The notes: a model not told the origin generated them from the sequence alone. Positions 1,294-2,629 are shown, numbered from the stretch's first letter. The stretch: DNA of 3,274 bases from Escherichia coli (GCF_003334405.1 NZ_QOWM01000035.1); one strand, 5' to 3'. Numbers and translations: made by a program.

Positions 1294-1322
1294 TTGCAAA
1301 TACGACTTAAGGGTCGTATTAT
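1294..1322 (+). promoter_or_regulatory. sigma70-like promoter for the three-gene operon (TTGCAA, 17-nt spacer, TATTAT)
   Basis: -35 TTGCAA at 1294-1299 and -10 TATTAT at 1317-1322 with a 17-nt spacer, about 60 nt upstream of the first ATG. The predicted leader contains a GGGG-aatgg-CCCC hairpin (1336-1348). Confidence 0.45.
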
Positions 1323-2109: not shown

Positions 2110-2417
2110 TCACGGAATCGGATATGCTTACTGAAGCTAAAAAAATGGCAGTAGAGATGATGTTCTGGCCTGCTTGTCCTGTAGATGATGATTATTGTTT
2201 CGACGCTATAATGTATACATCAGTTATTGACAAGAAGTTTGAAGATGAACATGGGGTATATCTTCATCAGGTTTACAAAGAACTATGCTCAACACCTGAA
2301 TTAAAAAAACTTCTAAAAAAGAAAGCAATAAAATTGATTGCTTTTAAGCACGATATTGATCTTGATTCAGCTAACAAGACTTTAATGAAAAATATGCTAA
2401 GGAGGATTGAAAACTGA
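2106..2417 (+). CDS. hypothetical protein (103 aa), third gene of the operon
   Basis: ATG 2106 overlaps the upstream stop (ATGA at 2106-2109), so translationally coupled. Stop TGA at 2415-2417. No family recognised. Confidence 0.55.
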   Translation: MITESDMLTEAKKMAVEMMFWPACPVDDDYCFDAIMYTSVIDKKFEDEHGVYLHQVYKELCSTPELKKLLKKKAIKLIAFKHDIDLDSANKTLMKNMLRRIEN

Positions 2418-2427
2418 AAAACTGAAA

Positions 2428-2457
2428 GTGATCAGGTTGCTGGAACAACCTGATCAC
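2428..2457. repeat. perfect inverted repeat with 12-bp arms and 6-nt spacer (GTGATCAGGTTG-ctggaa-CAACCTGATCAC)
   Basis: Read directly from the sequence. Not followed by a U-tract on the + strand. Flanked by AAAACTGA(A) direct repeats at 2410-2417, 2418-2425 and 2471-2479. Confidence 0.6.
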
Positions 2458-2491
2458 GTTATCGACAATCAAAACTGAATGAGGTTTTTAA

Positions 2492-2629
2492 ATGTCAACG
2501 CGGCAGATCGTACAGCTTGCTGATTCCCTTGTCAAAGGCTGGGAAACCAGAATTCCGGCAATGAAATTTAGTGAATGGGATCAATTCCGGTGGTGGTTAA
2601 ACTACCTGCAAGGGTATGAAATGTTTTAA
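2492..2629 (+). CDS. candidate small protein (45 aa), absent from the supplied ORF track
   Basis: SD GAGG at 2481-2484, 7 nt before ATG 2492. 45 sense codons then TAA at 2627-2629, followed directly by an intrinsic terminator. Product MSTRQIVQLADSLVKGWETRIPAMKFSEWDQFRWWLNYLQGYEMF is Trp-rich and not low-complexity. Confidence 0.35.
   Translation: MSTRQIVQLADSLVKGWETRIPAMKFSEWDQFRWWLNYLQGYEMF

Follow-up and report, generated by a model that had tools for sequence, protein, structure and literature searches.

The open reading frame at 2492-2629 of the 3,274-nt Escherichia coli sequence analysed here (NZ_QOWM01000035.1 of assembly GCF_003334405.1, hereafter called the window) behaves, by its substitution pattern, as a genuine protein gene under purifying selection that is specific to frame +1. 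Its first codons also carry a predicted promoter on the opposite strand which, like the hairpin upstream of the frame, is under selection. We consider it somewhat probable that two genes overlap at this locus, a 45-aa protein encoded on the plus strand and an antisense RNA on the minus strand that would keep the protein low in established cells. The original prediction had described the small frame and its flanking signals; the antisense promoter inside it, the covarying hairpin upstream of it and its leading-region context were not part of that description, and together they alter what the locus is. The features of the locus are collected in Table 1.

Table 1. Features of the small-ORF locus, with positions counted from the first nucleotide of the window.
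Feature	Position	Strand	Remarks
Candidate sense operon promoter, TTGCAA-17-TATTAT	1294-1322	+	9/12; putative
Predicted cis-antisense RNA, ~80-85 nt	2416-2500	-	spans codons 1-3, start codon and Shine-Dalgarno; predicted ends
Covarying hairpin, GTGATCAGGTTG-CTGGAA-CAACCTGATCAC	2428-2457		12-bp perfect stem; 13 pairs in the minus-strand scan
Shine-Dalgarno motif, GAGG	2481-2484	+	7 nt 5' of the ATG; read from the sequence
Small protein gene	2492-2629	+	ATG, 45 codons, TAA stop at 2627-2629
Predicted antisense sigma-70 promoter	2535->2507	-	consensus scan, 10/12; within codons 5-15
Bidirectional intrinsic terminator, predicted to end the sense transcript	2637-2667	both	hairpin 2637-2657 and T-run

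The frame was found as originally described, with its ATG, its well-spaced Shine-Dalgarno (SD) motif and a non-repetitive product, MSTRQIVQLADSLVKGWETRIPAMKFSEWDQFRWWLNYLQGYEMF, in which four of the 45 residues are Trp. A motif of the GAGG/GGAG type stands at an equal distance from the ATG in the homologues, and a hairpin with a T-run lies 3' of the stop in most of them. In the window this terminator-like hairpin is AAAGGGGC-TTTCT-GCCCCTTT, followed by GTATTTTTTG; the terminator scan gave it eight pairs, five of them GC, and it is regarded as bidirectional because the minus strand scores too. Its predicted distance of 3 nt from the stop is right when the stem is taken to include the A-run, and otherwise becomes 7 nt. 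The expectation that automated annotation would overlook the frame was borne out as well: PGAP/RefSeq places no CDS there in the identical plasmid NZ_CP070012.1 or in NZ_CP110861.1, where the annotation gap runs from a 97-aa hypothetical protein to hicA, and the frame is usually missed elsewhere.

The conservation of the peptide was assessed by tblastn against 72,556 plasmids (PLSDB). It was matched in 1189 plasmid records, and in 1178 of these the match covered 80% or more of the peptide. Identities ranged between 100% and about 35-49%, and the plasmids typed as conjugative numbered 1081. The extracted homologues, of 41-49 aa, retained an intact frame and an SD motif and usually a terminator. 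Broken frames in close homologues had been named as one observation that would speak against a gene, and the frame was intact in close and distant homologues alike, including those with 37-61% identity. Pairwise Nei-Gojobori dN/dS values among the IncX, IncI2 and related copies ranged from 0.02 to 0.17 with dS up to about 1-2. Between the window and one homologue (L007), 15 synonymous changes fell on 26 sites and eight non-synonymous changes on 109 sites (Fisher P 6e-8). When pN/pS was calculated for all six frames, frame +1 had the lowest value (0.13), the mirror frame -2 had 0.26, and the other four had 1.4-3.9. The reading as a chance open frame in the spacer between the upstream operon and hicAB draws on the shortness of the frame, its missing PGAP annotation and its lack of a family match; it is excluded by this substitution pattern, and the intact frame in 1178 plasmids and a confident structure prediction also stand against it, so that we give it practically no credence.

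The 41-49-aa members share a common motif, MS-x3-I-h-x-h-A-x5-G-x4-h-P-A-M-x3-(E/D)-(W/F)-x3-h-W-W-h-x-Y-L-x-G, across IncX, IncI2, MOBF/MPF_F and MOBP/MPF_I plasmids. M1, S2, A10, G16, P22, L36 and G41 are invariant in the alignment, and the conserved core of the protein consists of the hPAM loop and the WWLxYLxGY helix. A profile search of 1.8 billion representative proteins yielded only about two dozen short relatives, and the family members in UniProt are present only under the name 'uncharacterized protein'. No family was assigned to the protein in Pfam (even at E<=10), NCBIfam, PHROGs or PADLOC, no relative was found in the PDB by sequence, and the protein was not found in the phage genomes searched. 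AlphaFold2 returned a confident helix-loop-helix (pLDDT 91) with helices at residues 3-14 and 26-40. A fold search of the PDB and AFDB gave no significant match other than uncharacterised members of the same family; GINS-like and other fold matches were non-significant and were discarded. The protein has a GRAVY of -0.41, a net charge of 0 and no transmembrane-like segment, and its maximum 15-residue hydropathy is 0.20, as against 3.12 for Hok and 2.64 for TisB. By these models it would be a soluble two-helix protein; it is not a hydrophobic type I toxin.

The window is IncX-type E. coli plasmid backbone. Its identity to the 32.6-kb E. coli plasmid NZ_CP070012.1 is 100%, and many plasmids of 33 kb match it at about 96-97%. 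The gene order in NZ_CP070012.1 and NZ_CP110861.1 is replication initiator, J-domain protein, hypothetical proteins, hicAB, ddp1/taxA and the relaxase gene taxC. All loci that show a relaxase or relaxosome gene have it 0.4-3.5 kb downstream of the small ORF, in the same orientation; this layout is seen in the IncX variants, Klebsiella MOBP/MPF_I plasmids, a metagenomic plasmid with a NikA relaxase, and Erwinia (TraM). The neighbours of the ORF are leading-region genes, namely antirestriction genes, DUF1380, DUF4942, LPD29, psiA/psiB, hok, ssb and parB-like genes. The relaxase gene marks the lagging side of oriT, and genes enriched in the leading region are oriented such that the transferred strand serves as their template (PMC11541004). 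By this criterion the gene order would place the small ORF among the most oriT-proximal leading-region genes, with the direction of transfer in IncX plasmids deduced from gene order rather than from a mapped nic site.

One copy of the locus was observed in a different setting. In the 270-kb Salmonella plasmid NZ_CP045058.1 (L003, 3001-3138), the hairpin-ORF cassette is flanked on one side by a recombinase gene of opposite orientation and on the other by a type I restriction-modification operon (hsdM, hsdS), with no transfer genes in view. It adjoins genes for a TIR-domain protein and a colicin-like tRNase, and its ORF is annotated as hypothetical protein WP_176193372.1.

The original prediction had also raised the neighbouring hicAB operon and a regulatory or immunity-type role. 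The IncX slot just downstream of the ORF holds hicAB, relBE, a parE-type toxin-antitoxin (TA) module or none; relE/parE with an antidote, DUF6290-ParE and HigA-like genes also occur there. Lying ahead of the relaxosome genes, this slot is a place where different type II TA modules are exchanged (L007, L008, L012, L013, L015, L021), and it is empty in IncX7; since its content differs or is missing, the ORF is not tied to hicAB. Moreover, hicA has a perfect promoter of its own directly behind the terminator (TTGACA-17-TATAAT, 2665-2693, 12/12), so that the small ORF and hicAB form separate transcription units. A functional link to hicAB is therefore unlikely, and nothing points to an immunity-type role. 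The -10 of the hicA promoter sits within a short inverted repeat, AACTA-TAAT-TAGTT (2665-2700), which is a plausible candidate for the HicB operator.

No conserved sense promoter stands at a consistent position within 300 nt upstream of the ORF. A monocistronic unit was therefore rejected in favour of read-through from the candidate promoter listed in Table 1, and the sense transcript likely comprises four cistrons that end at the terminator, with the small ORF as the last. One of the products encoded upstream (1735-2109) is a 124-aa protein of short beta-strand repeats (GDV.TVSGDV...), to which RefSeq gives various names in near-identical plasmids (DUF4097 family beta-strand repeat protein, 'tail-associated lysozyme' or hypothetical protein); of these, the lysozyme label seems unreliable.

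The candidate operon promoter lies at the 3' end of an unannotated, GC-rich and strongly structured non-coding element of ~385 nt (957-1340) and is conserved in the copies of that element. A second copy, at 3881-4265 of L001, occurs in the same plasmid with 99% identity. Each copy precedes a co-directional operon, with about 45 nt between it and the first gene; one of these operons is the J-domain operon and the other the small-ORF operon. The element was found at 2900 places in 1173 plasmids, typically two or three times per IncX4 or IncI2 plasmid, and a long hairpin, TTGCGCCCGTAG...CTGCGGCGCAA, forms its conserved core. It had no Rfam match at E<=1. No simple Frpo-like hairpin was seen in its predicted folds around the candidate promoter. 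It may serve as a single-strand promoter, a priming signal or a leader.

The predicted antisense promoter inside the small ORF consists of a -35 TTGACA (2535-2530), a 17-nt spacer and a -10 TACGAT (2512-2507), which would place the transcription start near 2500, about 7 nt past the -10. When the first 100 nt of the ORF were scored with a simple position weight matrix (PWM), the best minus-strand promoter stood at the same place in 20 of the 21 divergent homologues, with the -10 ending at +13 to +16 from the ATG. These sites scored 10-15 bits, while the best site on the plus strand reached 1-7 bits. The position was fixed even though protein identity fell to about 30-40%, and the hexamers varied among homologues (TTTACA/TATTAT, TTGCCA/TAATAT, TTTTCA/TATAAT, TTGCAA/TAGAAT, TTGACC/TATGAT), also where the residues differ, as in L010, in which D-Y-S is written so as to give TATAAT. 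Both the promoter and the hairpin upstream were absent from one locus (L023).

Since a conserved peptide could bring such a string with it, 5000 recoded versions of each ORF of 16 homologues were made, with synonymous codons chosen according to local usage. The real sequence scored above the recoded mean in all 16 homologues; the individual P-values were 0.008-0.32 and combined to a Fisher P of 9e-9, the 16 values coming from related sequences. The mean promoter score of the recoded sequences reached 8-10 bits, so that the signal is in part not independent of coding. The synonymous sites point the same way. In six IncX-like sequences the synonymous divergence pS was 0.31 over codons 2-16 and 0.67 over codons 17-45. 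TCA (codon 2), ATC GTA CAG (codons 6-8, under the -10) and CTT GTC AAA (codons 13-15, under the -35) were synonymously invariant, while the spacer codons 10-12 and codons 3-5 were free to vary. At the sequence level this footprint is the one expected of a promoter rather than of a protein constraint.

The hairpin upstream of the ORF begins where the homology begins: in many plasmids the BLAST match starts exactly at 2428, its first base, and ends just past the stop. Of the 23 loci listed as ORF carriers, 18 have the hairpin 27-36 nt upstream of the ATG, very divergent ones among them, and the hairpin motif was matched only about four times elsewhere in 349 kb when both strands were scanned. 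The stems are unrelated in sequence, whereas the top is conserved as TG-N4AA-CA: the closing pairs T-G...C-A are invariant (2440-2447; alignment columns 13-22) and the loop ends in AA, such that the loop on the antisense strand begins with UU. In a gap-free alignment of 17 sequences, 10 of the 12 pairs had changed on both sides. Hairpin cells were paired in 88.7% of cases as against 26-44% with slid partners, and no shuffle attained the covariation score. Read on the minus strand the hairpin resembles a terminator, and as read on the plus strand it forms a hairpin of the 5' UTR with no U-tract. The A-rich sequence 5' of it gives a U-tail on the minus strand only, with a T-rich tail past the hairpin in most members (TTTCAGTTTTT in the window; T6-7 in L006, L009, L018 and L027). 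Its wobble pairs (four GU vs three AC) showed no strand bias.

Several other readings of this segment were tried and set aside. A CsrA site (GGA loop) and a YUNR U-turn both fit the loop in the window and not in most homologues. Taking the conserved (G/A)ACA past the hairpin as a sense -35 would require a -10 that puts the start site inside the ORF. In the IncX7 plasmid NZ_OK649971.1 (L014, 2501-2530), the stem is as in the window and the plus-strand loop is TTCCAG in place of CTGGAA; this 6-nt loop, the reverse complement of that in the window, appears to have been flipped within the perfect palindrome. Three GATC Dam sites were also noted, one in each hairpin arm (2430-2433 and 2451-2454) and one overlapping the antisense -10 (2506-2509), an arrangement that recalls the Dam-sensitive finP and IS10 promoters. 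Control by Dam methylation was rejected, the GATC sites not being kept even among the IncX relatives (e.g., codon 5 = CAA).

Between the promoter and this hairpin, the predicted antisense RNA folds into two stem-loops with -30.4 kcal/mol and a z-score of -6.9 in the window. Stem-loop 1 (SL1, 2499-2461) would present the anti-SD sequence CCUC in its apical loop, and SL2 (2457-2428) would be followed by the tail UUUCAGUUUUU. The SL1 stem GUUGACA/UGUCGAU is the complement of the conserved AUGUCA start and of the conserved (G/A)ACA motif, and thus accounts for the ACA motif as well as for the TCA serine codon being near-invariant. The same two-stem-loop layout was predicted in 15 of 17 homologues, with the antisense strand the more stable one: the summed fold energies were -463 kcal/mol for the antisense and -408 kcal/mol for the sense strand. 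Several stems of the antisense strand use G-U pairs, for which the sense strand would have A-C mismatches. From a MAFFT alignment, RNAalifold retrieved SL2 only; MAFFT misaligned SL1, which was therefore judged per sequence with shuffles, giving the SL1 segment a mean z of -2.57 on the antisense and -0.99 on the sense strand. In these predictions the antisense strand is the better-folding strand between promoter and hairpin. The U-tract is weak in the window, as the tail given above indicates, and is absent in four homologues (L004, L010, L016, L019), so that termination at the hairpin is not assured everywhere. An Rfam scan of the whole window at E<=1 returned no family, FinP included.

These observations can be joined in the reading that we favour, with two overlapping genes. 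A strong, constitutive-looking minus-strand promoter in codons 5-15 would make an antisense RNA of ~80 nt, which would cross codons 1-3, the start codon and the SD motif and stop at the hairpin. Once paired to the mRNA, it would keep ribosomes from binding, the duplex probably being cleaved, and the protein would be held low in cells where the plasmid is established. Conjugative transfer may change this balance. The gene is oriT-proximal and points towards the relaxase genes, and the transferred strand should therefore template the mRNA and not the antisense RNA. Since the antisense RNA needs the complementary strand as its template, the protein could be confined to the first moments after transfer, with a burst just after conjugative entry and a shut-off once the complementary strand lets the antisense promoter fire. 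The entry burst presupposes that the operon is transcribed from the incoming strand, via a promoter usable on single-stranded DNA. We infer that the RNA is made, that it represses translation and that expression is timed in this manner. The most likely role of the protein would be that of an early establishment or counter-defence factor, a proposal that homology does not support. The fuller version, a 'strand-state timer' in which the protein is made only while the entering plasmid is single-stranded or freshly converted and acts as a very small establishment or counter-defence factor, is put forward tentatively, as a possibility. If it is true, a new kind of very small factor would be common to IncX, IncI2 and F-like/I-like resistance plasmids.

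The main rival is a type I toxin-antitoxin addiction module, in which the 45-aa protein would be toxic and the antisense RNA a labile antitoxin, so that plasmid loss leads to killing or growth arrest. The predicted architecture is the same, a small ORF with a cis-antisense RNA over its SD and start and with terminators of its own, and, as in type I systems, a frame for a protein shorter than 60 aa overlaps a predicted antisense RNA gene. The block from hairpin to stop also behaves as a portable cassette, with homology confined to it in many plasmids, and it stands alone beside the recombinase and type I restriction-modification genes in the Salmonella plasmid; elsewhere the locus is usually found beside type II TA modules or hok. 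The protein itself fits poorly. The hydropathy values given above are not those of the hydrophobic, membrane-inserting peptides that serve as toxins in most type I families, neither HOK_GEF nor any other toxin family was matched, and a toxin that is expressed off the incoming strand ahead of its antitoxin would, barring further control, be harmful to the new host. We therefore regard an addiction module as unlikely.

Another possibility is that the gene is real and has no functional antisense RNA, the promoter-like string being a by-product of conserved Ile/Val/Leu/Lys codons and the hairpin a sense 5'-UTR or inter-cistronic element (stability, processing) or a protein-binding palindrome. The high scores of the recoded sequences lend it some weight, as the protein sequence alone already favours a promoter-like string. 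So do several properties of the hairpin, namely wobble pairs that favour neither strand, a loop and closing pairs of conserved sequence, more than a plain terminator would require, and the inverted loop of the IncX7 plasmid. On the other hand, codon choice lifts the promoter score to or above the recoded expectation in every homologue scored, synonymous change is blocked precisely beneath the two hexamers and allowed in the spacer, and the promoter is kept where the amino acids differ. The region from promoter to hairpin also folds better as antisense, with the anti-SD in a loop, and the U-tail occurs on the minus strand only. The recoding control and the synonymous footprint together make a coding by-product quite improbable, and the reading with an antisense RNA over the start of a small gene is retained.

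An antisense RNA gene over the first codons of the small ORF has apparently not been described before. The literature that we searched on leading regions and anti-defence genes, leading-region type I TA modules, IncX4/IncI2 transcriptomes, antisense RNAs and sRNAs contained no description of the ORF or of the RNA. The type I TA module of pOXA-48 was considered and is a different locus, DqlB/agrB between repA and trbC. A study of an IncX regulator did not mention the small-ORF region. IncI2 plasmids carry the FinO-domain protein PcnR, which has been described only for replication control (PMC8053102), and the antisense RNA studied together with PcnR is the replication-control RNA of IncI2.

What is new here is the target, an unannotated soluble 45-aa protein by prediction, and its place at the entering end of conjugative plasmids. 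The module sits at the plasmid end that enters a new host first, on the backbones that spread mcr-1 and carbapenemase genes (IncX, IncI2 and Klebsiella plasmids; 1189 PLSDB records). The protein, which belongs to no Pfam, NCBIfam or PHROG family, and the predicted RNA, which matches no Rfam family, are both still unnamed. Should the antisense RNA exist, leading-region genes, now discussed mainly in terms of single-strand promoters, would gain a layer of control at the RNA level, and synonymous promoter knock-outs would offer a simple handle on an early-entry micro-protein. The first 15 codons of the small ORF are also a clean case of a coding sequence shaped by a promoter on the opposite strand.

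Among known systems, FinP is a plasmid cis-antisense RNA of ~80 nt with two stem-loops that acts against the 5' UTR, ribosome-binding site and first codons of traJ (work of Frost, van Biesen and Glover). Its first loop carries the anti-RBS, its second stem-loop is the terminator, and its promoter lies inside the start of traJ, next to oriT. The RNA predicted here in silico has the same length and two-stem-loop layout over the ribosome-binding site and first codons, a layout recurring among the homologues, with the anti-SD in the SL1 loop, a terminator-like SL2, a promoter within the start of its target and a locus near oriT. Unlike traJ, which encodes an activator, the target here encodes a 45-aa protein on the leading side of oriT, and the locus differs further in the lack of an Rfam match in the window and in the sequence conservation of the SL2 loop and closing pairs.

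Hok/sok and its relatives in plasmid leading regions (flm, srn, pnd) likewise pair a small ORF with a cis-antisense RNA and are carried by conjugative plasmids, in many cases within the leading region, and hok genes neighbour the small ORF in three loci (L011, L016, L017). The present locus differs in that it has no HOK_GEF match (Pfam PF01848, E<=10), no transmembrane segment, no mok-type overlapping frame and no long fold-back mRNA, and in that the antisense RNA would target the SD and start of the protein itself. In IS10, the outward promoter of RNA-OUT lies in the first codons, and the stem-loop RNA pairs with the 5' end and start codon of RNA-IN, with a coupling to the state of the DNA via Dam methylation (work of Kleckner). 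An outward-reading promoter within the first codons and a predicted stem-loop antisense RNA over the start are shared with the small-ORF locus, which, unlike IS10, has no transposase and no IS ends; because a GATC overlaps the antisense -10 in some members only, the Dam logic of IS10 is not conserved here.

SymR and symE offer a comparison with a soluble target. Kawano, Aravind and Storz reportedly found in 2007 that the SymR promoter lies in the 5' coding end of symE and that the RNA covers the SD and start and represses translation. SymE is a soluble 113-aa protein with an AbrB fold, chromosomal and SOS-controlled. The locus described here resembles it in the short antisense RNA, predicted to start from a promoter in the 5' end of its target, and in the solubility of that target, and differs in that the product is a plasmid-borne 45-aa helix hairpin with no homology to SymE. 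By analogy with these systems, the best-supported reading is that a cis-antisense RNA blocks translation initiation of the small protein, as FinP, SymR and RNA-OUT do for their own targets.
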